This document shows, piece after piece, positions 28,175-49,370 of a stretch of DNA of 64,000 nucleotides (the stretch's first letter is position 1; every line of letters starts with the position of its first letter). The stretch is from Oscillospiraceae bacterium (GTDB lineage Bacteria; Bacillota; Clostridia; Oscillospirales; CAG-382). The DNA is taken from contig JAFLUP010000001.1 in the NCBI GenBank assembly GCA_022508745.1, positions 3,912 to 67,911 on the forward strand, given 5' to 3'. A program made the translations under genes and the position numbers. The notes beneath the pieces are model-generated. The model saw nothing but the letters and a program-made list of their open reading frames with translations. It did no database searches and was not told the origin of the DNA.

Positions 28175-28203
28175 ATTGTACCTTCTTTTTTGTCATTTGT
28201 CAA
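28175..28203 (-). promoter_or_regulatory. sigma-A-type promoter for the PfkB kinase gene, overlapping the spoIIID stop codon
   Basis: Minus strand reads TTGACA-17 nt-TACAAT. The -35 spans the spoIIID stop (28200-28202). Confidence 0.55.
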
Positions 28204-28457
28204 TGTTTTGCCGCTAAATATTTCAGCCGCGTGGCATTTCCGCCGCGCTTGTGCCGTTCCTCTTTATTGGTCCGCAGAACCTGTTGGACCTCCTCGTAGA
28301 GCGGAGGGTTCTGCTGTTTGAGACGAGCGGTCAGATCCTTGTGCACCGTGCTTTTGCTGACGCCGAACTTTTTTGCGGCGGCGCGGACGGTGGCACCGGT
28401 CTCCGACACGTACTTTCCGATTTCCTCTGCCCGTGTGGGCGCGTCGGAACGAAACAT
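28200..28457 (-). CDS. spoIIID: sporulation transcriptional regulator SpoIIID
   Basis: 85 aa, the C-terminal part of track ORF 28200..28898. EEIGKYVSETGATVRAAAKKFGVSKSTVHKDLTARL...RHKRGGNATRLKY closely matches the SpoIIID HTH and basic tail. Confidence 0.9.
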   Translation of the reverse strand: MFRSDAPTRAEEIGKYVSETGATVRAAAKKFGVSKSTVHKDLTARLKQQNPPLYEEVQQVLRTNKEERHKRGGNATRLKYLAAKH

Positions 28458-28528
28458 GGGATCAATCTTGCCTTTCTTAAAAGAATTTGCAGCATTTTTC
28501 CTTTCAGACCAGTTTCCTTTCGCTGCTA

Positions 28529-28557
28529 TGCGTATGCGCGGGATTGTAAAAATATAC
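28529..28557 (-). promoter_or_regulatory. candidate sigma-E-type (mother-cell) promoter for spoIIID
   Basis: Minus strand reads GTATATT-14 nt-CATACGCA. The B. subtilis sigma-E consensus, as I recall it, is kmATATT-14-CATACAmT. Confidence 0.4.
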
Positions 28558-28566
28558 GTGATCCTC

Positions 28567-28595
28567 TTGACAAAATCGCTTTTGAATGGTATCAT
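28567..28595 (+). promoter_or_regulatory. sigma-A-type promoter for the MinD-like / MGS-like / hisS-aspS transcription unit
   Basis: TTGACA-17 nt-TATCAT. The RBS GGAGGAG and TTG 28630 lie downstream. Confidence 0.6.
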
Positions 28596-28629
28596 AGGCA
28601 TAACTCTATGGTGGAGGAGTGTACCGTTT

Positions 28630-29463
28630 TTGGGCAGAGTGATTTTTGTGACCGCGTTCAAGGGCGGGGTCGGGAAAACGACCGCCGCCGCGGGTATCGC
28701 CGCCGCCCTTGCGTCTCTCGGGAAAAAGGTCTGTATCGTGGATGCGGATTTCGGGATGCGCTGTATGGATCTGGTGTTGGGCATGGAAAGCAGCGTGCTG
28801 TACGATTGCAGCGACGTTTTGAGCGGACGCTGCACGCTGTCGGAAGCCATCGTTCCGGTGGGGGGCAGCGGTTCGCTGTGGTTTTTGCCTGCCCCCATGC
28901 GCTACGACGGGCGAGGGCTTTCCAAGGAAAACGCGGACGCCCTGTTTGCCGAACTGCGCAGAACCTACGATTATTGTCTGGTGGATTCCTCCGCGGAGCT
29001 TTCGGATTACTACCGCCTGTTTGCCGGGGAAGCGGACGAGGCCATCGTCGTCTCCCTGCACCAATCCACTGCGGTGCGCGCGGCGGAGAAAACGGCGGCA
29101 AACCTCGCCTCCTTCGGGCATTGGCGTATCCGGCTGATCGTCAACGGCTACCGCGCAAACCTCGCTTCCGCCGGGAGGCTCCCCACCCTGTTTGAGATGA
29201 TCCGGCGCTCCTCGGTCCCGCTGCTGGGCGCCGTTCCCGCATCGGAAACGCTCCCTGCGGATCAGGAAAAAGGGGAAACGGCCTTCGGCGGGAAGGAGAG
29301 GCGGCGTTTGCGGTCTTACGAGGCGGCGTTTCTGAATATCGCGCTTCGGCTCTGCGGGGTCGGCGTGCCGCTGCTGGAAGGGGTCGCGCCGCCGGGAAGG
29401 AAGGCAGCCCGCCTTGCGGAAGCAAGAAAGCGACTGCCGGAAGAGCGAACCGTTTCCATTTGA
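28630..29463 (+). CDS. MinD/ParA-family ATPase (orphan MinD-like)
   Basis: Within track ORF 28318..29463. TTG 28630 lies 10 nt after GGAGGAG; GTG 28639 is an alternative. Deviant Walker A FKGGVGKTT and a MinD-like DADFGMRCMDLVLG. No minC or minE adjacent. Confidence 0.8.
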   Translation: MGRVIFVTAFKGGVGKTTAAAGIAAALASLGKKVCIVDADFGMRCMDLVLGMESSVLYDCSDVLSGRCTLSEAIVPVGGSGSLWFLPAPMRYDGRGLSKENADALFAELRRTYDYCLVDSSAELSDYYRLFAGEADEAIVVSLHQSTAVRAAEKTAANLASFGHWRIRLIVNGYRANLASAGRLPTLFEMIRRSSVPLLGAVPASETLPADQEKGETAFGGKERRRLRSYEAAFLNIALRLCGVGVPLLEGVAPPGRKAARLAEARKRLPEERTVSI

Positions 29464-29927: not shown

Positions 29928-31172
29928 ATGAAACTGACACCTACCGAGGGCATGCGGGATTATCTGCCCGGGGAAAATGCCGTCCGCGACCGGCTGCTGG
30001 AACGCATCCGCGAGGTCTACCGTGCCAACGGCTTCCGTTCCATCGAGACGCCGGCGGCGGAAAGTCTGGAGAATCTGGAAAACAGCGACGGCGGGGAGAA
30101 CCTTAAGCTGATCTACCGGCTGGAAAAGCGGGGGGATAAGCTGAAAAAAGCCATCGAGGCGGGGGATTTCGCCCATCTGTGCGATCTGGGTCTGCGCTAT
30201 GACCTGACCCTGCCCCTTTCCCGTTACTACGCGGCACACCGGAACGATCTGGAAACCCCCTTCAAGTGCATCCAGATCGGGCGGGTCTACCGCGCCGAGC
30301 GCCCCCAAAAGGGACGGCTGCGGGAGTTCGTGCAGTGCGACATCGACATCCTCGGCTCGGAGAGCATGGATTGCGAAGTGGAGCTGATCACCGTCACGGC
30401 GGAAGCGCTGCTGGCGGTGGGCATCGACGATTTCCGCGTCCGGGTGAACCACCGCGCGCTGCTGCGGAATCTGATCGTGGGGTGCGGCTTTGCGCCGGAA
30501 TCGGCGGATTCGGTGTGTATCACGGTGGATAAGGCGGATAAGATCGGCTTCGACGGCGTAAAGGCGGAGTTGTTGGATAAGGGGTTTGCCCCGGAAGCGG
30601 CGGAAAAGCTGACGGCGCTCCTGCAGGGAGGGCTGACGCTGGAAACGCTGGCGTCTTTCGGCAGTCAAGCGGAAGCGCAGCAAATTTCCGCGCTGTTGGA
30701 ACAGACCAACGCCCTTGCGGAGGGGAAGTACGAGGTAATCTTCGACGCCACGCTGGTGCGCGGACAGGGCTACTACACCGGAACGGTGTTCGAGATCGAA
30801 TGTCCCTCCTTCGGCGGCACGGTGGCAGGCGGCGGACGGTACGACAACCTGATCGGTAAGTTCAGCGGCGGCATCGTGCCGGCGGTGGGCTTCTCCATCG
30901 GGTTTGAGCGCATCTTTTCCGTGCTTTGGGAGCGGGGCGCGAGCTCGCGCGCGGAAAGCAAGCCGCGGGAGGTCCTGTTCTACGACGAAGGGCAGATCGC
31001 GGAGGCCATCCGCTATGCCCGCACCCTGCACGCCGATTTTGACGTGACATTGGTGCAAAAGAAGAAAAAAGTCGGCAAACAGCTCGCCCAAGCGGAAGCA
31101 CAGGGCTATCGCTATGCCGAATTTCTGGAAACGCGCGGGGAGCGCAAAGAATTGACCGTTACGAAAGATTGA
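29928..31172 (+). CDS. hisS: histidine--tRNA ligase
   Basis: 414 aa. GMRDYLP, YRAERPQKGRLREFVQCDIDILG, GGGRYDNLI, and a C-terminal anticodon-binding domain. Confidence 0.93.
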   Translation: MKLTPTEGMRDYLPGENAVRDRLLERIREVYRANGFRSIETPAAESLENLENSDGGENLKLIYRLEKRGDKLKKAIEAGDFAHLCDLGLRYDLTLPLSRYYAAHRNDLETPFKCIQIGRVYRAERPQKGRLREFVQCDIDILGSESMDCEVELITVTAEALLAVGIDDFRVRVNHRALLRNLIVGCGFAPESADSVCITVDKADKIGFDGVKAELLDKGFAPEAAEKLTALLQGGLTLETLASFGSQAEAQQISALLEQTNALAEGKYEVIFDATLVRGQGYYTGTVFEIECPSFGGTVAGGGRYDNLIGKFSGGIVPAVGFSIGFERIFSVLWERGASSRAESKPREVLFYDEGQIAEAIRYARTLHADFDVTLVQKKKKVGKQLAQAEAQGYRYAEFLETRGERKELTVTKD

Positions 31173-31192
31173 CCATTACGAAAGAAGGAAAT

Positions 31193-31301
31193 GTTTGAAA
31201 CCGACGCAGACTGAAAAGGGATGCGTCAGTCGTTCAAACTACATTTGTGCTTTGCTGCACAGCAAGGTGCAGCATTTTCCTGCGGAAAAACACCACAAAT
31301 G
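31193..31301 (+). ncRNA. candidate structured intercistronic element, copy A (hisS|aspS)
   Basis: Module 1: GTTTGAA(31193-31199)...TTCAAAC(31233-31239) encloses GACGCA/TGCGTC. Module 2: CATTTGTG(31242-31249)...CACAAATG(31294-31301) encloses hairpins TGCTGCAC/GTGCAGCA and TTTTCC/GGAAAA. A second copy lies at 42965-43070. Confidence 0.5.
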
Positions 31302-31325: not shown

Positions 31326-33122
31326 ATGGCGGAATTACTGGGCGGAGAGCGCCGCACGCATCTTTGCGGCGAACTGCGGAATACCCACGTGGGCGAAGAA
31401 GTCTGCGTGATGGGATGGGTGCGCAAACGGAGAGATCTGGGCAACCTGCTGTTTGTTGATCTGCGGGATCGCAGCGGTGTGGTGCAGCTGGCATTTGACG
31501 ACGGCACCGATCCGGCGCTGTTCGAGAAGGCCTCCGGCGTGCGCAGCGAGTTCGTGCTGTCTGCGCGGGGGACCGTGCGGAAGCGCGCTTCCGTCAACGC
31601 GGAGCTTCCCACGGGAGAAGTGGAGATCTTTGTGACCTCGCTGAAGATCCTCGGGGAGAGCGAAACGCCCCCCTTTGAGATCACGGACGATTGCAAGACC
31701 GGGGAAGAACTTCGGCTGAAATACCGCTATCTGGATCTGCGCCGCCCGGTGCTGCAGCGGAATCTGCTGTTCCGCCATCGCGTCGCCAAAGTGACGCGGG
31801 ATTATTTTGACGAAAACGGATTTGTGGAGCTGGAAACGCCCATCCTGATCCGTTCCACGCCGGAGGGAGCGCGGGACTACCTCGTGCCCTCCCGTGTACA
31901 TCCCGGCTCCTTCTACGCGCTGCCCCAGTCCCCGCAGCTGTATAAGCAGCTTTCCATGGTGGCTGGCTTCGACCGGTACTTCCAGCTTGCCCGCTGCTTC
32001 CGTGACGAGGACCTGCGCGCCGACCGGCAGCCGGAATTCACCCAGATCGACTTGGAAATGAGCTTCGTGGACATGGAGGACGTGCTTTCCATCGCGGAAG
32101 GGTACATTCAGCGCCTGTTCCGGGAAACGCTGGGGGTGGAGATCCCCATGCCGCTGCCCCGGTATACTTACCGAGAAGTCATGGACCGGTTCGGTTCGGA
32201 CAAGCCGGATCTCCGCTTCGGCATGGAGATTCAGGATCTGTCCGACGCGGTGCGGGGCTGTTCGTTCGCGGTCTTTTCTCGCGCGTTGGAGGCGGGCGGC
32301 AGCGTGCGCGCCATCGTGCTGAAGGGCGCGGCGGAGAAGTTCACCCGCAAGGATATCGATAAATTGGTGGAATACGCAAAGGGCTGCGGAGCGGCCGGGG
32401 TCGCCTGGGTGCGCCGCGCAGAGCAGATGAGCTCTTCCTTTGCCAAATTCCTCACGGAAGAGGAATTGCAGAAGATCTACGACTGCGCGGACTGCGCGGA
32501 AGGGGATATCCTGCTTGCCATGGCGGATGCGGACACCGACCGTCTGTTGACCCAGTTGGGACAGCTCCGTCTGGAGGCGGCGAACCGTCTGGGCATCGAG
32601 CGCAAGGGCTTCTCCTTCCTCTGGGTGGTGGAATTCCCGTTCTTTGAATATGATCGCGAAAGCGGCGAATGGCTGGCGATGCACCACCCCTTCACGGCGG
32701 TGGTGGACGAGTGCCTGCCGTATCTGGAAACGGATAAAGGACGCGTCCGCGCCAAATGCTACGATCTGGTGCTCAACGGCATTGAACTTTCCTCCGGCTC
32801 CATCCGGATCACGGATCCGGTGCTGCAGGCGAAGATCTTCGAGCTGCTGGGCATTTCGGAAGAGGACGCCAAGGCGAAGTTCGGCTACTTGCTGGACGCC
32901 TTCCGCTACGGCGCACCCCCCCACGGCGGCATGGCGCTGGGACTTGACCGTCTGGTGATGCAGATGCTGGGCGCGGAAAGCCTGCGGGACGTGGTGGCGT
33001 TCCCGAAGGTGCAGAACGCCTCCGAGCTGATGACCGGCTGCCCGGCGGAGGTGCCGGAGCAGGCGCTGCGGGATCTGGGGCTCCTGAAAGAGGAGACGCT
33101 CCTGCAAAAGGAGAAGGAATAA
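31326..33122 (+). CDS. aspS: aspartate--tRNA ligase
   Basis: ATG 31326 (MAELLGGERRTHLCGELR) fits AspS N-termini. FYALPQSPQLYKQ, FRDEDLRADRQPEFTQID, GGMALGLDRLVM. The track start 31221 would read through the structured element. Confidence 0.95.
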   Translation: MAELLGGERRTHLCGELRNTHVGEEVCVMGWVRKRRDLGNLLFVDLRDRSGVVQLAFDDGTDPALFEKASGVRSEFVLSARGTVRKRASVNAELPTGEVEIFVTSLKILGESETPPFEITDDCKTGEELRLKYRYLDLRRPVLQRNLLFRHRVAKVTRDYFDENGFVELETPILIRSTPEGARDYLVPSRVHPGSFYALPQSPQLYKQLSMVAGFDRYFQLARCFRDEDLRADRQPEFTQIDLEMSFVDMEDVLSIAEGYIQRLFRETLGVEIPMPLPRYTYREVMDRFGSDKPDLRFGMEIQDLSDAVRGCSFAVFSRALEAGGSVRAIVLKGAAEKFTRKDIDKLVEYAKGCGAAGVAWVRRAEQMSSSFAKFLTEEELQKIYDCADCAEGDILLAMADADTDRLLTQLGQLRLEAANRLGIERKGFSFLWVVEFPFFEYDRESGEWLAMHHPFTAVVDECLPYLETDKGRVRAKCYDLVLNGIELSSGSIRITDPVLQAKIFELLGISEEDAKAKFGYLLDAFRYGAPPHGGMALGLDRLVMQMLGAESLRDVVAFPKVQNASELMTGCPAEVPEQALRDLGLLKEETLLQKEKE

Positions 33123-34137: not shown

Positions 34138-34844
34138 TGTTTGCTATCTATAAGCGCGAGCTGCGCGGCTATTTCATCACGCCCATCGGGTATATCTTCT
34201 GCGGCGTGTTCCTGTTGGTCTCGGGGCTGCTGTTCTATTGGACCACGCTGGCGGCGCAGAGCATGGACAGCCTCAACGAGTACTTCTTGATGATGATCTG
34301 CGTGTTCGCCATCCTCATCCCGCTGCTGACCATGAAGCTGTTGGCGGAGGACAGGCGCACCAAGACGGAGCAGTTGCTGCTGACCGCGCCCGTGTCCCTG
34401 ACGGGGATGATTTTGGGGAAATATTTCGCGGCGCTGACCATTTACGGCTGTACCTTTTTGGTCAACACCTTCAATTTTGTGCTGTTATACCGTTACGGGA
34501 CCCCGAATACCGCCGCCATCTTCGCCAACATTCTGGGCGTATTCCTGATCGGCGCGGCATTCATCGCCATCGGGTTGTTCCTTTCGTCCCTGACCCAGAA
34601 CCAGCTCATCGCGGCGGTTTCCTCCATCGGGACCATCGTCGCCATGCTGCTGCTGTTCCTGCTGGGGGACGCGATCCCTTACGCATGGCTGCGTTCCGTG
34701 CTGCAATGGTTCTCCGTGCTGGACCGCTATGTGCCCTTCACGAATCAGAGCATGAGCATCCCGTCCATCGTGTATTATTTCTCTCTTGCCGCGGTGTTCG
34801 TGTTCCTGACGGTGCGCGTCTATGACAAGCGCCGTTGGTCATAA
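34137..34844 (+). CDS. ABC-2 type transporter permease (GldF-like)
   Basis: 235 aa and polytopic. The start overlaps the ATPase stop by 1 nt (TGATG). Confidence 0.8.
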   Translation: MFAIYKRELRGYFITPIGYIFCGVFLLVSGLLFYWTTLAAQSMDSLNEYFLMMICVFAILIPLLTMKLLAEDRRTKTEQLLLTAPVSLTGMILGKYFAALTIYGCTFLVNTFNFVLLYRYGTPNTAAIFANILGVFLIGAAFIAIGLFLSSLTQNQLIAAVSSIGTIVAMLLLFLLGDAIPYAWLRSVLQWFSVLDRYVPFTNQSMSIPSIVYYFSLAAVFVFLTVRVYDKRRWS

Positions 34845-34865
34845 GCGAAAGGATGGGTATAAGCC

Positions 34866-36410
34866 ATGAATAAAAAAGGACTTTCGGCGGAGCGGGGGAA
34901 CCGCATCAAACGGGGAACCGTTTCCGTCATCTATACCGTGGTGTTCATCGCGCTGGTGATCGCCCTGAACTTGGTGATTTCCTCCATCGCAGGCTCCGTC
35001 AGCCTGACCATCGACCTGACGGCGGAGGAATTTATTTCCATCGGGGATGTCTCCCGCAATGTGCTGGGCTCCCTGGATAAAAGCGGTGATCTGCAGGCCA
35101 CCATCTACCTGCTTGCCGACCGGGACGCGTACGACAACGTGGCGGACGAGACTCGCACGGCGATGCGCGGTCTGAACCCGCTGGCGCTGGTGCGCGACCT
35201 CTGCGAGGAATATGCGCGCACGTACAGCGGCATCAAGGTGGAGTATAAGAATCTGGAGCGCGACCCGGAATGGGCGAAGGAATATAACGAACGCGCCAAT
35301 ACCACGCTGACCACCAGCCACATCGTTGTGGAGGGCACCAAGCACGAGGAGGGGCAGAACCACGCCCGCGTGCTGACGCTGGACGCCTTCTTTACGGTGG
35401 ACAGCGAAACGAGGCAGTACATCGGCTTCAACGGCGAGCTTCGTCTGACCACCGCGCTGCTGCAAAGCTGTATGCCCGAGCCGCAGGTGGTGACGTTCAC
35501 CTCCGGTCACGGGGAGCCTGCCAGCGCGTCCACCCCGCTTGCGAATCTGCTGGGGAAAAACGGATTTGAGGTGCTGGAAGTCGATCTGTCCACCGATGAC
35601 ATCGACGAACGCACGCGGATCCTGATCGTCAACGATCCCCTGACGGATTTTACCGATTCCGAAGTGGAAAAGCTGATGGATTACGTGGGTGCGTACAACA
35701 GCCTGATCGTTCTGGTGGACGATTCCACCCCCGCGCTGCCAAAATTGCAGGACTATCTGCTGGAGGAGTGGGGGATGGACTACCGTCCGTACCATCAGGT
35801 CACGTCCTCGGTGAATTTCAATAACAACCAGTTGAACCTGTCCGCGCAGTACGTCACCGACGTAGCGGAAGCGGAGCGAAGCGCGGGATATGAGATTGTC
35901 AAAAACCTGAACGGAAAGACCATCATGCCCAACAGCGTGGAGCTGTACGGCGCGCCTGTCAAGACCAAGGACCGGTACACGCTGGAGACGGTACTGCGTT
36001 CTGCCGCCGGCTCGACCTCCACCTATATCAAGACCGGCGAGGAGGAAACGGGTGCGTTCCCGCTGATGCTGCTTTCCACCGACGGCGATTACGTGGATCT
36101 GAACGACGAAAACAGCACCAACCAGACCATGAAATTCCAGTACGTGATGCTGGTGGGCTCCACCGACTTTGCCGGACCGGGCTGTCTGGACAGCGCGGCG
36201 TACGTCAACAGCGCCATCGTGCTTTCCGCCGTCCGCACCATGGGCGTGGAGCGGTATTCGCTGAACATTGATTACAAGGCGATCAACGATGTGGCACTGA
36301 CCATCGAGACGGACGCGGCGTTCCGCTTGGGCGTCATCATCTGTGCGGTGCTGCCTGCCGCCATCACCATCGCGGGTTTGGTGGTCTTTGTCCGCCGGAG
36401 ACATCTGTAA
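34866..36410 (+). CDS. GldG-like ABC transport auxiliary protein
   Basis: 514 aa with N- and C-terminal TM anchors flanking a large domain. Position after the A/F-like genes is typical of GldG-family proteins. Confidence 0.7.
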   Translation: MNKKGLSAERGNRIKRGTVSVIYTVVFIALVIALNLVISSIAGSVSLTIDLTAEEFISIGDVSRNVLGSLDKSGDLQATIYLLADRDAYDNVADETRTAMRGLNPLALVRDLCEEYARTYSGIKVEYKNLERDPEWAKEYNERANTTLTTSHIVVEGTKHEEGQNHARVLTLDAFFTVDSETRQYIGFNGELRLTTALLQSCMPEPQVVTFTSGHGEPASASTPLANLLGKNGFEVLEVDLSTDDIDERTRILIVNDPLTDFTDSEVEKLMDYVGAYNSLIVLVDDSTPALPKLQDYLLEEWGMDYRPYHQVTSSVNFNNNQLNLSAQYVTDVAEAERSAGYEIVKNLNGKTIMPNSVELYGAPVKTKDRYTLETVLRSAAGSTSTYIKTGEEETGAFPLMLLSTDGDYVDLNDENSTNQTMKFQYVMLVGSTDFAGPGCLDSAAYVNSAIVLSAVRTMGVERYSLNIDYKAINDVALTIETDAAFRLGVIICAVLPAAITIAGLVVFVRRRHL

Positions 36411-41067: not shown

Positions 41068-42048
41068 ATGAACGAGGATATGGAACGCGATACAAACGAT
41101 ACAATCGAATACCTCGACTTGACGCCCGACGCGCATACGGAGGAAAAACCGGCGCGAAAGGCGAAACGGCCGACGCCGGAGGAACCGGATCTGGAGCAAC
41201 TGGCAAAGCAGATCCGCGAGGAGCTGGAGCGCGGAAGCGAGCAGGCCCCCCCGACGGAGAAAGCGCCGGAAGACGACGGCACGGCTCCGAAGAAGAACGC
41301 TGAAGAGGAGCAGCCCGAGGCGCAGTCCGAGGAGACGCCCGAGGGGCAGGAAACGCAGGAAGCACCGGAGGATACGCAGGAAGATCAGGCGGAAGCGCCG
41401 GAGGATCAGGCGGAAGAAACGTCGGAAGATAAGCCGGAAGATAAGCCGGAAGAAACGCCGGAGGAAGCCCGGACGCGCAAGTTCCGCGGGGTCTTCGAGT
41501 ATGTGGAGACCTTCTGTGTGGCGCTTGGGGTGATGATCCTGCTGTTCATGTTCGTATTCCGCTATGTTTCGGTGGACGGCGACTCCATGCTGCCCACGCT
41601 GCACGGCGGGAAGGCCTCCGATCACGCGGACCGGCTGATCATCTCCGATTTTCTGTATCATCCGAAGACCGGCGACGTGGTGGTCATCAGCACCGGCACG
41701 GGAGAGAAGCCGTTGATCAAACGGGTGATCGCCGCCGGCGGGCAGACCGTTCGCATCAATTTCAAGACCTGGGAAGTCTCCGTGGACGGCGTTAAGCTGC
41801 AGGAAGACTACATCTGGTACGTGGAAGGAAGACCGATGGAGGTCAGAGACATGGCTGCCATGTACGGGGTGGATGAAAACGGCGTTTGCGAGTTTACGGT
41901 CGGCGAAGACAAGGTCTTCGTCATGGGGGACAACCGCAACGATTCCAAGGACAGCCGCTTCCGGGAGATCGGAGAGCAGGACGTGGAGCACATTCTGGGG
42001 AAGGTGATCCTACGGCTGTTCCCGCTGCCGGAGTTTGGACCGGTATAG
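41068..42048 (+). CDS. lepB: signal peptidase I with long acidic N-terminal extension
   Basis: 326 aa. Catalytic Ser box GDSMLPTL, Lys box LIKRVIAAGG, and GDNRNDSKDSR. A ~140-aa Glu/Pro/Gln/Asp-rich segment precedes the TM helix. Confidence 0.87.
   Translation: MNEDMERDTNDTIEYLDLTPDAHTEEKPARKAKRPTPEEPDLEQLAKQIREELERGSEQAPPTEKAPEDDGTAPKKNAEEEQPEAQSEETPEGQETQEAPEDTQEDQAEAPEDQAEETSEDKPEDKPEETPEEARTRKFRGVFEYVETFCVALGVMILLFMFVFRYVSVDGDSMLPTLHGGKASDHADRLIISDFLYHPKTGDVVVISTGTGEKPLIKRVIAAGGQTVRINFKTWEVSVDGVKLQEDYIWYVEGRPMEVRDMAAMYGVDENGVCEFTVGEDKVFVMGDNRNDSKDSRFREIGEQDVEHILGKVILRLFPLPEFGPV
41411..41458 (+). repeat. in-frame 12-nt tandem repeat (4 units) inside lepB
   Basis: CGGAAGAAACGT CGGAAGATAAGC CGGAAGATAAGC CGGAAGAAACGC, encoding ..EETS EDKP EDKP EETP.. 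Related longer repeats (GATCAGGCGGAAG) lie just upstream. Confidence 0.85.
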
Positions 42049-42118: not shown

Positions 42119-42964
42119 ATGGATCGGGAGATCGTCTGGTACCCCGGACACATGAATCGCGCACGGCGCAAGATCAAGGAAAGTCTGCCGCTGGTGGATC
42201 TGGTGATCGAGCTGCTGGATGCCCGCGCGCCGCTCTCCAGCCGCAATCCCTCCTTTGCGGAGCTGTTCGCCGGAAAGCCCAGCCTGACGCTGCTGACCAA
42301 GTGCAGTCTGGCGGATCGGAACGCGGTCAGCAAGTACGTCAACCTGCTCAAAGGGGAAAACCGCATGGTGCTTCCCATCGACTGCAAAGAAGGCATGGGC
42401 ATCAAGAAAGTCGCCCCTGCCATTCGGGAGCTGATGGCGGAAAAACTGGCAAGATATGAAGCAAAGGGCATGAAAAAGCCTCTCCGCGCCATGGTCGTCG
42501 GCATCACGAACGTGGGGAAATCCACCTTTATCAATACCTTCGCCGGGGCAAAGAAGGCCAAAGCGGAGGATCGTCCGGGCGTGACCCGGAGCAACCAGTG
42601 GATCGCCGTCCCCGCCATGGGGGTGGAGCTGCTGGATACGCCCGGTTTGCTCTGGCATAAGTTTGAGGACCAGACGGTGGCACGCAAGCTGGCCATCCTC
42701 GGTTCCATTCGGGATGAAATTCTCGACCAAATTGAGCTTTCCTGCGCGATGCTGGGGATGCTGCGGGTGAAATACCCTACTTTGTTGACTGCCCGCTACA
42801 AGGTGGAATGGACGGACGAGGATTCGGATTACGACCTGTTTGAAAAGATCGCGCGGAAGCGGGGATGGATCCGCTCCGGCGGCGTGATAGACGAGGATCG
42901 TACCGCCTCCGTGCTGCTGGACGAGTTCCGCGCCGGAACCATCGGGCAGATCACGCTGGATTGA
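42119..42964 (+). CDS. rbgA: ribosome biogenesis GTPase YlqF/RbgA
   Basis: ATG 42119 follows AAAGGAGAGG. WYPGHM N-terminus. Circularly permuted GTPase motifs (LTKCSLAD, GITNVGKST, DTPG). Confidence 0.9.
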   Translation: MDREIVWYPGHMNRARRKIKESLPLVDLVIELLDARAPLSSRNPSFAELFAGKPSLTLLTKCSLADRNAVSKYVNLLKGENRMVLPIDCKEGMGIKKVAPAIRELMAEKLARYEAKGMKKPLRAMVVGITNVGKSTFINTFAGAKKAKAEDRPGVTRSNQWIAVPAMGVELLDTPGLLWHKFEDQTVARKLAILGSIRDEILDQIELSCAMLGMLRVKYPTLLTARYKVEWTDEDSDYDLFEKIARKRGWIRSGGVIDEDRTASVLLDEFRAGTIGQITLD

Positions 42965-43070
42965 TTTGAAAATCACGAAAGCGAAAGTGATTACGATCGT
43001 GTTTTCAAATCCCATTTGTGCCGTGAAGCGCAAGGCGCTTCATTTTCCTGAAGGAAAAACGTCACAAATG
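42965..43070 (+). ncRNA. candidate structured intercistronic element, copy B (rbgA|rnhB)
   Basis: Module 1: TTTGAAAA(42965-42972)...TTTTCAAA(43002-43009) encloses TCAC/GTGA. Module 2: CATTTGTG(43013-43020)...CACAAATG(43063-43070) encloses TGAAGCGC/GCGCTTCA and TTTTCC/GGAAAA. Confidence 0.5.
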
Positions 43071-43093: not shown

Positions 43094-43711
43094 ATGGCAA
43101 ACGCATTGGATTGGGTCGTCGAGGACGGCTTCCGCACGGACGCGCTGCAGGTGTTCTGCGGTTGTGACGAGGCGGGGCGCGGCCCTTTGGCGGGGCCCGT
43201 GTACGCCGCGGCGGTGATTCTGCCGCGGGATTTTTTACCGGCAGATCTCAACGATTCCAAAAAACTCTCTCCTGCAAAACGGGAGAAGTTATATGAGGAA
43301 ATCCGCGCCCACGCGCTGGATTTTGCCATCGCTCGCGCCGAAGTGGAGGAGATCGAGCGGATCGATATTCTCAACGCCGCCATGCTTGCCATGCGTCGGG
43401 CGGTCGCCGGTCTGAAGCAGATGCCGGACGGTGCGCTCGTCGACGGACCCATCGCAAGGGAGTTCCCGCTGCCCGCGTTTCCCGTGGTGGGCGGGGACGG
43501 AAAGTGCCCCTCCATCGCGGCGGCGTCCATTTTGGCAAAAGTGGAACGGGACCGGGACTGCATGGAGCTGGATCGGCTCTACCCGCAGTACGGCTTTGCC
43601 TCCCATAAGGGGTACGCCACCAAAGCGCATCGGGAGGCCATTCTGCGCTACGGACCCTGTCCGGCGCACCGGCGCAGCTTTCTGCGCAAGCTGTTGGGAG
43701 AACAGCCGTGA
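43094..43711 (+). CDS. rnhB: ribonuclease HII
   Basis: 205 aa. GCDEAGRGPLAGPV, DSKKLS, and a GDGKCPSIAAASILAK region. Confidence 0.93.
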   Translation: MANALDWVVEDGFRTDALQVFCGCDEAGRGPLAGPVYAAAVILPRDFLPADLNDSKKLSPAKREKLYEEIRAHALDFAIARAEVEEIERIDILNAAMLAMRRAVAGLKQMPDGALVDGPIAREFPLPAFPVVGGDGKCPSIAAASILAKVERDRDCMELDRLYPQYGFASHKGYATKAHREAILRYGPCPAHRRSFLRKLLGEQP

Positions 43712-46641: not shown

Positions 46642-46658
46642 CACAAACATACAAGAAT

Positions 46659-46733
46659 AGACCGTTTTTCGACCTTTTGCATATACTGCTTTTGAAACAA
46701 AAGCAGGCAAAAGGGAAAGGAACGGTCTTTTTT
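46659..46733 (+). terminator. long terminator-like hairpin + T6 abutting the start codon and containing the SD of the trans-sulfuration gene (candidate attenuator)
   Basis: Stems 46660-46666/46721-46727 (7 bp), 46673-46680/46707-46714 (8 bp) and 46686-46694/46698-46706 (9 bp, AAA loop), then TTTTTT 46728-46733 and ATG 46734. The SD AAGGGAAAGGAA lies in the 3' arm. Confidence 0.65.
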
Positions 46734-47852: not shown

Positions 47853-47872
47853 AATTGAAAAAGGGAACGAAA

Positions 47873-47899
47873 CGGGCACCTCCCATAAAGAGGTGCCCG
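47873..47899 (+). terminator. intrinsic terminator after the trans-sulfuration gene
   Basis: CGGGCACCTC-CCATAAA-GAGGTGCCCG followed by TTAAGCTTTGTT. Confidence 0.6.
47887..47898 (+). repeat. 12-nt direct repeat AAAGAGGTGCCC, left copy
   Basis: Exact 12-mer repeated at 49181-49192. The left copy forms the 3' arm of the terminator hairpin. Confidence 0.7.
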
Positions 47900-47940
47900 T
47901 TAAGCTTTGTTACAGACTAGTCGGATCGATACCGAGTCTT

Positions 47941-49047
47941 TTATCGTGCATATTCGTTCAGTGATTCAATAACTTTTATAAATCTTTCGTTGTCACGAAT
48001 CCTATCATATCTTGTGTTTTTTAATCTGTCAAGCATATGATAGCACTGCGAATGTTCCTTCAATTCGTGAAAATCTTTGTTGGGGAAGGGATATACCAAT
48101 TTATCAGTAAATATTGAGCTGTAACCCTTCCCGTGATTTTCATTATAGGAACGGTCATACCCTACAGCGTGAATGCACATCTTCTCAAGCGAATCGAGAG
48201 CATCGTTCGCTTTTCCTTGCGAGATCTGGTACGTTGAAATGAGCCAATAATTAGATGCAAGCCTACAGTGATAAAACATAAGATCATCACCGTATATCAT
48301 CTGATAAAGCTTGTTTGAAGTGATCAACATCTCAATTTTCTTGTCCCATGTCGACGGATCGTTCGGGAGATTTTCCGCTAACGGGTAATTTGAGATTGCT
48401 ATACCTAAACAATCCGTCAGCTTGTCAATCTCGTCTTGAATATAAAATTCATCTTTGCCGTCACCGATCCCCGATGATAGCGCAAACTCACGGCAATACT
48501 TTATGGGAGCGAGCAAATTTATAGCTTTTAAGGCTTTGTCACTCTGTTTCGTGTTCCCATAGATGTTTACCAATAGATTGATTGCGTTATATCGTGTGCC
48601 CTCGTCATTACACTCGTCAATCACAGATAAGCATAAGTTCTCGATCTCGCTCAATAGAGACTTTTCATTCGTGTCTTTCCATAAATGGTATAAACATACC
48701 GCGAGATTTTCCTTGATCGCATGATCCGACGGATATTTTGATATAGCGTTTCTCGCGAAAGCAATACGCTCTTCGATCGTACCGACCTCGCCAAGACGTG
48801 ACATCTCTTTCTTTATGTTGGCAATTTCATTTTCCCGCTCCGAAAGCTTGTATCCGAGGAGCTCATCGGTGCTCACATTAAAAAAGTCAGCAAGCGACGG
48901 CAAAAGCTCAATGTCGGGATATCCGTTTTCTGATTCCCAACGAGATATCGCCTGTGGTGTAACGCCAATCGCCGTAGCAAGAGTATCTTGTGTTACCTTC
49001 TTTTCTATTCTTAATTTCTTTATGTTCATACCGATCTTTACATTCAT
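47941..49047 (-). CDS. XRE-family HTH transcriptional regulator with C-terminal helical-repeat (TPR-like) domain
   Basis: 368 aa. HTH LRIEKKVTQDTLATAIGVTPQAISRWESENGYP. The gene is ~35% GC in a ~60% GC background. Confidence 0.8.
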   Translation of the reverse strand: MNVKIGMNIKKLRIEKKVTQDTLATAIGVTPQAISRWESENGYPDIELLPSLADFFNVSTDELLGYKLSERENEIANIKKEMSRLGEVGTIEERIAFARNAISKYPSDHAIKENLAVCLYHLWKDTNEKSLLSEIENLCLSVIDECNDEGTRYNAINLLVNIYGNTKQSDKALKAINLLAPIKYCREFALSSGIGDGKDEFYIQDEIDKLTDCLGIAISNYPLAENLPNDPSTWDKKIEMLITSNKLYQMIYGDDLMFYHCRLASNYWLISTYQISQGKANDALDSLEKMCIHAVGYDRSYNENHGKGYSSIFTDKLVYPFPNKDFHELKEHSQCYHMLDRLKNTRYDRIRDNERFIKVIESLNEYAR

Positions 49048-49090
49048 TGTTCTATCTCCTAAAAAATGATTTTTGTAAGCTTACGGTTTT

Positions 49091-49118
49091 ATTATACCAT
49101 TTTCTAAAAAAGAATCAA
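49091..49118 (-). promoter_or_regulatory. sigma-A-type promoter for the HTH-TPR regulator
   Basis: Minus strand reads TTGATT-16 nt-TATAAT with an extended -10 (TGGTATAAT). AGGAG lies 8 nt before ATG 49047. Confidence 0.55.
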
Positions 49119-49180
49119 TCATCAATCGCTTGTGAACTTTATAAACGAATGGTTTATAAGCCGTCAAAGAAGAATATGAA

Positions 49181-49192
49181 AAAGAGGTGCCC
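49181..49192 (+). repeat. 12-nt direct repeat AAAGAGGTGCCC, right copy
   Basis: Exact 12-mer identical to 47887-47898. The two copies bracket the low-GC segment. Confidence 0.7.
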
Positions 49193-49300
49193 CTCGGAGA
49201 GCGTAATGCGCTTTTGATGGCCGTAAGGTTGTCAAAAGTGCTTTTGTGTTATTATTGGAAAGAGTAACAGACACCTGATACACATGCAAGGGAACAAAAA

Positions 49301-49327
49301 ACGGCATAGCCGTTATGACTATGCCGT
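49301..49327 (-). terminator. intrinsic terminator of the nifS-thiI-thioesterase operon
   Basis: ACGGCATAG / CTATGCCGT 9-bp stem. On the minus strand it is followed by TTTTTTG. Confidence 0.75.
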
Positions 49328-49370
49328 AATTCCTTATGTGAAGGGAACGAAAAAACGTTCCCTTTTCCTG

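Follow-up and report, generated by a model that had tools for sequence, protein, structure and literature searches.

A Small Family of Palindromic, Probably Mobile Elements at Stop-Codon/Shine-Dalgarno Junctions of Oscillospiraceae Operons

Introduction

Correia elements of Neisseria, the enterobacterial ERIC/IRU sequences and the pneumococcal BOX and RUP elements are co-transcribed MITEs of pathogens, structured repeats of about 100-150 nt that lie beside genes, are transcribed and fold in the mRNA. Their designs differ. BOX elements are modular and have variable internal modules, Correia elements carry 26-bp terminal inverted repeats (TIRs) and a TA duplication, and ERIC is one long imperfect palindrome that occurs in either orientation. 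To our knowledge, none of the Correia, ERIC/IRU, BOX or RUP elements homes to the junction between a stop codon and a Shine-Dalgarno (SD) sequence, or supplies a stop codon.

REPs are single hairpins of 20-40 nt with a GTAG/CGTC tag, typically arranged as inverted pairs and present in tens to thousands of copies (PMC3733652). The palindromes of the REP/BIME and REPIN-RAYT systems are extragenic, co-transcribed and lineage-specific, with alternative complementary residues in their stems (PMC3733652, PMC3116915). Firmicutes are not mentioned in PMC3733652. The IS200/IS605 ends-only elements (PATEs) and IS608 have neither TIRs nor target-site duplications (TSDs); they have a hairpin at each end and are short and non-coding (PMC7290912).

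Here, we analyzed a 64-kb stretch of DNA from a gut Oscillospiraceae genome (the window, to which all coordinates refer unless another sequence is named), in which a first-pass annotation had described a multi-hairpin element before aspS and a second copy before rnhB. The GC content of the window is ~59%, and a variable island of low GC was observed as well. Sequence comparison with relatives indicates that the aspS and rnhB copies are members of a small family of non-coding elements of ~92-111 nt, which have spread by copying to four or more unrelated loci. The explanation we regard as probable is a lineage-restricted, non-autonomous mobile element that is mobilized in trans and inserts at stop-codon/SD junctions.

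Results and Discussion

Two Unrelated Intercistronic Gaps Carry the Same Architecture

The first-pass annotation had assigned one two-copy architecture to the hisS/aspS and rbgA/rnhB gaps, and the sequences that it quoted were correct to the base. Copy A is flanked by hisS and aspS. Copy B lies in the gene order rplS-lepB-rbgA/rnhB, in which rbgA corresponds to MMR_HSR1. Repeat-length variation was observed in lepB. A pattern search with CATTTGTG-N(30-60)-CACAAATG gave exactly two matches in the 64-kb window, at 31242-31301 and 43013-43070 and both on the + strand, and 0 matches in 100 shuffles. The features of the two copies are as follows.

31192..31301, + strand: copy A, whole element, TG...CACAAATG, 110 nt, between hisS and aspS; 96 bits with covariance model R1
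31193..31239, + strand: copy A, module 1, foot GTTTGAA...TTCAAAC around a variable stem
31242..31301, + strand: copy A, module 2, 8-bp closing helix CATTTGTG/CACAAATG around hairpins 1 and 2
31253..31274, + strand: copy A, hairpin 1, TGCTGCAC-AGCAAG-GTGCAGCA, variable and paired throughout
31275..31289, + strand: copy A, hairpin 2, TTTTCC-TGC-GGAAAA
31302..31325, + strand: spacer between copy A and aspS, containing the aspS SD (AAAGGAA); aspS ATG at 31326
42962..43070, + strand: copy B, whole element, TGA...CACAAATG, 109 nt, between rbgA and rnhB; 129 bits with R1
42964..43010, + strand: copy B, module 1, ATTTGAAAA...TTTTCAAAT
43013..43070, + strand: copy B, module 2, from the pattern search and the fold
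43024..43042, + strand: copy B, hairpin 1, TGAAGCGC-AAG-GCGCTTCA
43043..43058, + strand: copy B, hairpin 2, TTTTCC-TGAA-GGAAAA
43071..43093, + strand: spacer between copy B and rnhB, TAAAGGAGGGGATTGTCATTACC, holding the rnhB SD; rnhB ATG at 43094

Modules 1 and 2 have an ATTTG...CAAAT foot in common. Module 1 is the inverted repeat TTTGAA(A)...TTCAAA that had been reported to precede each core, and it was found at both places (31193-31239 and 42964-43010). Across copies, its foot TTTGAAA/TTCAAA is kept while the inner stem has diverged. In module 2, the foot CATTTGTG/CACAAATG and hairpin 2 are invariant, the hairpin 2 stems TTTTCC/GGAAAA being the same in copies A, B, B' and C, and hairpin 1 is optional and variable. 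Between copies A and B, the closing helix and the hairpin 2 stems are identical, and three base pairs of hairpin 1 are exchanged, each with compensation (3/3), as had been claimed. TTTGAAA and CATTTGTG are 41 nt apart in each of copies A, B and C. At its 5' end the element reads TG(A) and at its 3' end ...ATG across copies. The reported distance from core to ATG also held, with 24 nt in copy A and 23 nt in copy B and the SD in between.

The rbgA stop codon is formed by the first three bases of copy B, and the spacer that follows this copy starts with TAAAGGA, which is the stop codon and SD of the empty alleles in the relatives L019 and L020. The sequence of copy B is identical in L002 and L003. 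Since the same element is thus found in three independent assemblies of the window's strain, it is not an assembly artifact.

Close Relatives Have Empty Sites at the Orthologous Junctions

To place the two copies, the orthologous regions were compared in relatives that span a range of identity to the window. The element had been called conserved. This description did not survive the comparison: the orthologous junctions of close relatives are only 4-26 nt long and lack the element.

hisS/aspS gap, L069: 4 nt, copy A absent (HisS 93% identical to the window)
hisS/aspS gap, L020: 10 nt, copy A absent
hisS/aspS gap, L021: 26 nt, copy A absent
rbgA/rnhB gap, L019: 11 nt, copy B absent (RnhB 90%)
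rbgA/rnhB gap, L020: 12 nt, copy B absent
rbgA/rnhB gap, L023 and L024: 12 nt, copy B absent (RnhB 96%)
rbgA/rnhB gap, L026: 20 nt, copy B absent (RnhB 91%)

When the relatives were aligned to the window with blastn, collinear identity of 80-92% was broken exactly at copies A and B. On this comparison, copies A and B are insertions relative to close relatives.

Site B is polymorphic among strains that are otherwise nearly the same. L025, in which the site is filled, encodes the same RnhB protein (P0001) as L023 and L024, in which it is empty. Over 800 nt of flanking sequence, L025 departs from L023 at 6 positions (99.3% identity) and from the window at 49. Read as a conserved cis-regulatory RNA of the two operons, the element lacks support, since it is absent in the nearest relatives and polymorphic in near-identical strains. 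Because essential junctions of the nearest relatives, and of a strain with 99.3% identity, do without a copy, the element is dispensable there. Subtracting the element from the L025 allele does not give exactly the spacer of the empty allele in L023, TAGAAGGGGTAAGCG, and the gain or loss that separates L025 from L023 at site B was therefore not a clean event.

Copies C and D Extend the Family

Two further members were located, one of which has an empty site in the window and the other a remnant.

34842..34865, + strand: empty site of copy C, from the TAA stop codon (34842-34844) through the spacer; ATG at 34866
28483..28506, - strand: stub of copy D, upstream of spoIIID; its reverse complement, GAAAGGAAAAATGCTGCAAATTC, is the 3' arm of hairpin 2 plus the 3' foot

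Copy C occupies positions 2811-2902 of L019 (92 nt), between an ABC permease gene and its auxiliary gene. It is composed of module 1, the closing helix and hairpin 2, and hairpin 1 is absent. The window, L023 and L020 carry the empty allele. Copy C is inserted exactly between TCA, the last sense codon, and the ancestral TAA, and both of its flanks match the empty alleles; a comparison of these flanks with the empty alleles revealed no target duplication. The upstream gene at this site is now ended by copy C's own TGA. The geometry of site B is the same, with GAT/TGA...CACAAATG/TAAAGGA where L019 and L020 read GAT TAA AGGA.

In L069, copy D retains its full length in degenerate form (nhmmer E = 1.5e-24), and in L020 decay has gone further (nhmmer E = 1.4e-07, R1 E = 0.054). 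It lies on the DNA strand opposite to copies A-C, yet it runs in the same direction as the downstream spoIIID. These alignments show that the family is old in the clade, with old copies eroding by deletion and newer ones polymorphic. Searches of the window with R1, nhmmer and mismatch-tolerant patterns returned no copies beyond A, B and the D stub. Over ~81 kb of the source contig, the count is two intact copies and one remnant, at which density a high copy number is unproven. As expected of a mobile repeat in the generic sense, copies are found at four unrelated loci, and empty alleles are found for A, B and C.

Two other structured features were observed on the side. One is a hairpin-rich insert elsewhere on the contig, unrelated to copies A-D, and the other is a conserved long hairpin with a U-run that abuts the ATG of a Cys/Met PLP-enzyme gene.

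Insertions Occupy a Narrow Niche Upstream of the SD

In all four copies, the 3' end lies 2-7 nt upstream of an SD, and the copy is oriented like the downstream gene. The right flanks of the four insertions are ^TAAAGGAGG, ^TAAAGAAAGG, ^CAAAGAAAGG and ^CCAATGAAAGG. Co-oriented junctions of ≤30 nt account for 7% of the intergenic DNA and took three of the three intercistronic insertions (p ~4e-4, assuming uniform intergenic insertion over the ~81 kb annotated contig). Within ~217 kb of DNA from the clade, each of the four loci is either extragenic or at the last codons of a gene, and each runs with the downstream gene. By chance, four out of four copies would be co-oriented with a probability of 0.06-0.13, and the agreement with the downstream genes is suggestive only.

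On the sense strand the left flanks read GGAAA, TGGAT, GGTCA and GTCTA, with no consensus and no common tetranucleotide, and on the antisense strand the flanks TTTA, TTTA, TTTG and TTGG are only loosely alike. At sites A, B and D, the right-hand boundary can be placed only to within ~20 nt, because the L023 spacer does not equal L025 minus the element. The SD-bearing tails of copies B, C and D resemble one another.

At the 3' end of hisS, a 17-nt tandem duplication was observed (TTGACCRTTACGAAAGA twice, 31152..31185, + strand), and its junction creates the hisS stop codon at 31170-31172. Without this duplication, hisS would enter copy A and stop at the TGA inside TTTGAAA.

Folding and Covariation Are Compatible with a Regulatory RNA and with a Mobile Hairpin

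The sense strand folds better than shuffled sequence, with z = -3.0 for the copy A region and z = -4.1 for the copy B region, and the antisense strands of both copies fold about as well as the sense strands. The SD is unpaired in the predicted folds of copies A and B. In an alignment of four sequences, standard pairs fill 95% of the pair cells, and pairing falls to 35-50% once the partner columns are slid. The covariation noted in the first-pass annotation is real as an observation: five pairs change on both sides, and the observed score was reached by 3 of 500 shuffles, with four sequences only. Hairpin 1 contributes three covarying pairs out of seven and 0 broken ones. Counted by strand, the non-standard pairs are two G-U on the sense strand vs one C-A, so that neither folding nor these counts single out one strand as the selected one.

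The L025 allele of copy B allows rates of change to be compared. Its hairpin 1, TGATGCAC-GAA-GTGCATCA, differs from that of the window at 6 of 19 positions; two base pairs are fully compensated and the loop is changed. The rest of the element and its spacer differ at 3 of 113 nt, while 14.4% of the four-fold degenerate sites of rnhB differ between the same two strains (P = 3e-5 for 3/113 changes). The invariant parts may be constrained in sequence and hairpin 1 in structure only. Alternatively, the L025 copy B may be younger than its flanks, judging from an element and spacer that are window-like within coding flanks that are L023-like.

These data bear on the alternative that survives best, an exapted or primary cis-acting RNA module at operon junctions that is kept by selection at these loci, which we consider rather unlikely. 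Such a module could uncouple translation of the downstream gene, serve as an RNase processing or stabilizer site, or act as a weak attenuator in which hairpin 1 is followed by UUUUCC. As the hairpin begins at the stop codon, it could also stall or slow termination of the upstream cistron. Selection of this kind would explain why change outside hairpin 1 is well below the neutral rate in the two strains (3/113 vs 14.4%), and why hairpin 1 changes at or above that rate (6/19 nt) yet remains perfectly paired, which is the signature of structure-only constraint. A passive mobile insert should have drifted faster than 3/113, unless the L025 copy is younger than its flanks. The two sense-strand G-U pairs, the constant placement relative to the SD and the unpaired state of the SD in the predicted folds would also fit a function in RNA. 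In copy A, hairpin 1 plus TTTTCCTG scored as terminator-like with only four U residues after the stem, but the same type of scan made no terminator-like call for copy B. A scan of copies A and B for sigma-70-like promoters returned none.

Several observations speak against a cis-acting RNA. The same essential junctions lack the element in the nearest relatives and in the 99.3%-identical strain, and the downstream genes (aspS, rnhB, the ABC auxiliary protein gene and spoIIID) have no regulon in common. Copy C has no hairpin 1 at all, copy D is decaying, the two strands fold equally well and Rfam offers no match. Covariation alone does not discriminate between a regulatory RNA and a mobile element with hairpins that are required as single-stranded DNA or corrected as palindromes. 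Selection on ssDNA or RNA hairpins for mobility would be expected to leave compensatory changes, and template-switch correction of palindromes would be expected to do so equally.

The Family Is Known from One Narrow Clade

The first-pass statement that no known riboswitch or T-box signature is visible agrees with a search of Rfam 15, which produced no credible match. The whole window had no match at the gathering threshold. With E raised to 10, both loci gave chance-level matches only, the best being CRISPR-DR33 at 24 bits vs a gathering score of 39. This match was rejected, as there is no repeat array.

Across GTDB representative genomes, CATTTGTG-N15-40-GGAAAA-N2-6-CACAAATG gave 14 matches, all attributable to chance and 0 with the TTTTCC arm; this pattern would miss C-type copies, which are without hairpin 1. 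JGI metagenomes and IMG/VR were screened with two patterns and then, at 35 loci, with R1, and no family member was recovered. A blastn search of plasmids and phages returned no match. Among the gene calls and Pfam matches between window positions -9185 and 72019 (~81 kb), no transposase domain was present, and no full-length parent element was found in the ~81 kb of contig examined. So far, the element appears to be confined to one narrow clade of uncultured gut Oscillospiraceae, as judged from these searches.

A Mobile Element Moved in Trans Would Account for the Insertions

We are fairly confident that the element is mobile and was inserted at these sites. An enzyme encoded elsewhere in the genome would move it in trans. 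Terminal hairpin modules together with the lack of TIRs and TSDs would favor a single-strand mechanism (HUH/Y1, IS200/IS605- or RAYT-like) over a DDE transposase, and an HUH-type mechanism specifically is a tentative suggestion that we hold as doubtful. The preferred target would be a purine-rich stretch, ^YAAAGRA, at stop-codon/SD junctions. Recognition would depend on hairpin 2 and the invariant feet, and of hairpin 1 and the top of module 1 pairing alone may be needed. A need for pairing only would give rise to compensatory changes, through selection on the ssDNA or RNA fold or through palindrome-templated correction. Within essential operons, the element would be co-transcribed and tolerated because it folds on itself, brings a stop codon and leaves the SD free.

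A stronger form of this proposal can be stated, to which we give only limited credence. The element would then be an undescribed structured mobile element that homes to the stop-codon/SD junction of tight operons, inserting in sense orientation with its own in-frame stop codon, leaving the SD intact and causing no polar damage. Its feet and hairpin 2 would be under selection while hairpin 1 covaries freely, either as the substrate of a hairpin-recognizing recombinase or by retuning translational coupling or attenuation.

A classical cut-and-paste MITE, moved by a DDE transposase that recognizes terminal inverted repeats, is improbable. The element shares with MITEs its short length, lack of coding capacity, occurrence at several loci and presence/absence polymorphism, and its termini contain the inverted ATTTG...CAAAT. 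These inverted termini span only 5-6 bp, where ~10 bp or more is the criterion, and the symmetry is mostly internal to two separate palindromic modules rather than end-to-end. Site C, which is cleanly resolved, shows no target-site duplication, and the same holds for B provided that TAAAGGA is native, with A and D ambiguous. A long target-site duplication was also considered and rejected, since the flanking similarities at site C are already present in the empty alleles and a duplication at B implies an ancestral junction without an SD.

Spread without any transposition, in which a leader-like hairpin is carried to new sites by recombination, gene conversion or template switching, is very improbable. 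The hairpin at 46642-46733 is a candidate for this source, with an apex like module 1: copy C module 1 and the leader hairpin at 46690-46730 both have TTTGAAAC.AA.GCAGGCAAAAGG. The nhmmer match to this leader is not significant (E = 0.13), and the four loci have no common flanking homology that could guide recombination. The mosaic state of L025, window-like in element and spacer and L023-like in the coding flanks, would fit an import, but this import needs breakpoints ≤6 nt upstream and ~45 nt downstream. Other candidates were dismissed on inspection: an integron attC site, as the core sites do not fit GTTRRRY/RYYYAAC; a hammerhead or other small ribozyme, for lack of core motifs and an Rfam match; and the operator of a dimeric repressor, as the palindrome shows covariation rather than conservation.

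Implications

If the mobile reading is true, compensatory changes between two copies in one genome are not enough to call a riboregulator, and orthologous empty sites can overturn such a call. It would also mean that filled and empty alleles form natural pairs for the effect of a 110-nt structure on translational coupling and operon polarity. The apparent preference for the short gap that separates a stop codon from the following ribosome-binding site in essential operons would hint at a hairpin-recognizing mobilization system in uncultured Oscillospiraceae. The element is new and its insertion niche is unusual and precise, while its class is that of familiar genomic passengers. The finding does not bear on any long-standing open question.

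Comparison with Described Elements

Among the roles listed in the first-pass annotation, a REP/MITE-like repeat is the one that we favor, in modified form; the REP tag is missing, as are the TIRs and TSD that a DDE element should have. Among small palindromic mobile repeats, a broad class, we file the element as novel, and it fits no named family.

Intercistronic RNA structures, such as RNA thermosensors and translational-coupling hairpins, resemble the element in their location between stop codon and SD and in their stable fold. They are conserved at their own locus and locus-specific, whereas the element is a repeated, polymorphic insert at unrelated junctions.

With REPs and REPINs, the element shares its extragenic palindromic nature, its presumed co-transcription, the alternative complementary stem residues between copies and its lineage specificity. 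It differs in having no conserved tag. CTAC, the complement of GTAG, stands before module 2 only in copy A, and copies B and C have TCCC and CCCC there. It further differs in combining two different modules in direct order over ~110 nt, at a low observed density.

PATEs and IS608 are similar in that the element has no TIR or TSD, carries a hairpin structure at each end, is short and non-coding and is presumably mobilized in trans. Its end structures are unlike each other except for the ATTTG/CAAAT foot, one of them being a two-hairpin junction, and its left flanks show no clear tetra- or pentanucleotide consensus, being loosely alike on the antisense strand only. No parental IS or tnpA is present among the gene calls over ~81 kb. 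In contrast to IS608-type elements, its orientation follows the downstream gene, and with copy D on the other strand it has no consistent replication-strand bias.

Sequence Context of the Hairpin Element

The 3' end of hisS, directly beside copy A (the ~110-nt hairpin element between hisS and aspS), carries TTGACCRTTACGAAAGA twice in tandem, a 17-nt duplication at window 31152-31185. The present hisS stop, TGA at 31170-31172, is made by the junction of the two TTGACCRTTACGAAAGA copies. Lacking this duplication, hisS would run on into copy A and end at the TGA within TTTGAAA, the foot of the element's 5' inverted-repeat module. The HisS C-terminus reads ...ELTVTKD* in the window versus ...ELTTTKEGI* in the relative L069.

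An insert of ~200 nt that is rich in GC hairpins was also observed on the same contig, ~4 kb ahead of the window start (L029:5181-5375), flanked by the convergent genes fumarase_C and yqfD. Strain L030 is without this insert, and the two genes overlap there. Its sequence is unrelated to the ~110-nt element (copies A-D), a hint that hairpin inserts of more than one type occur in this lineage.

Gene Calls and Variable Loci

The DNA of spoIIID, the gene downstream of the decaying copy D, is present at window 28200-28457 on the minus strand, yet no spoIIID gene is called on the contig. Called over it is a 381-aa ORF with a TTG start (28318-29463, plus strand). This ORF is probably an over-extended call of the parA-like gene of the locus, because that gene encodes 277-293 aa in relatives.

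Within lepB (window 41068-42048), the stretch 41364-41465 carries GAAGATAAGCCG-like repeats that keep the reading frame and have a period of 12 nt; the length of this signal peptidase runs from 293 to 390 aa across closely related strains. In a more distant relative, GCA_964549435.1 (L021:16766-22646 and L022), synteny stops past the thiamine pyrophosphokinase gene, and rplS-lepB-rbgA-rnhB gives way to a block resembling a prophage, with terminase, portal and capsid, and to a glucosaminidase that bears a dockerin.

A 1.5-kb island at window 47872-49341 has 44% GC, against 59% for the genome, and contains the following gene:

47941-49047, minus strand, HTH-XRE protein, 368 aa

This island is missing from L019; L026 instead carries a methyltransferase gene plus a NUDIX gene there.

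Hairpin Before the Cys_Met_Meta_PP Gene

At window 46642-46733, a TTGACA box precedes a long hairpin of three tiers, after which a T6 run adjoins the ATG of a Cys_Met_Meta_PP gene; the SD of this gene sits within the 3' arm of the hairpin. The hairpin matched nothing in Rfam and is kept in two relatives (L019:14495-14610 and L026:5087-5205). Its apex (TTTGAAACAAAAGCAGGCAAAAGG) is similar to the 5' module of copy C, the 92-nt copy in L019, at a level that is not significant (nhmmer E = 0.13). This structure could represent an attenuator or a riboswitch-like leader that has so far escaped recognition; alternatively, it may serve the gene upstream as its terminator.
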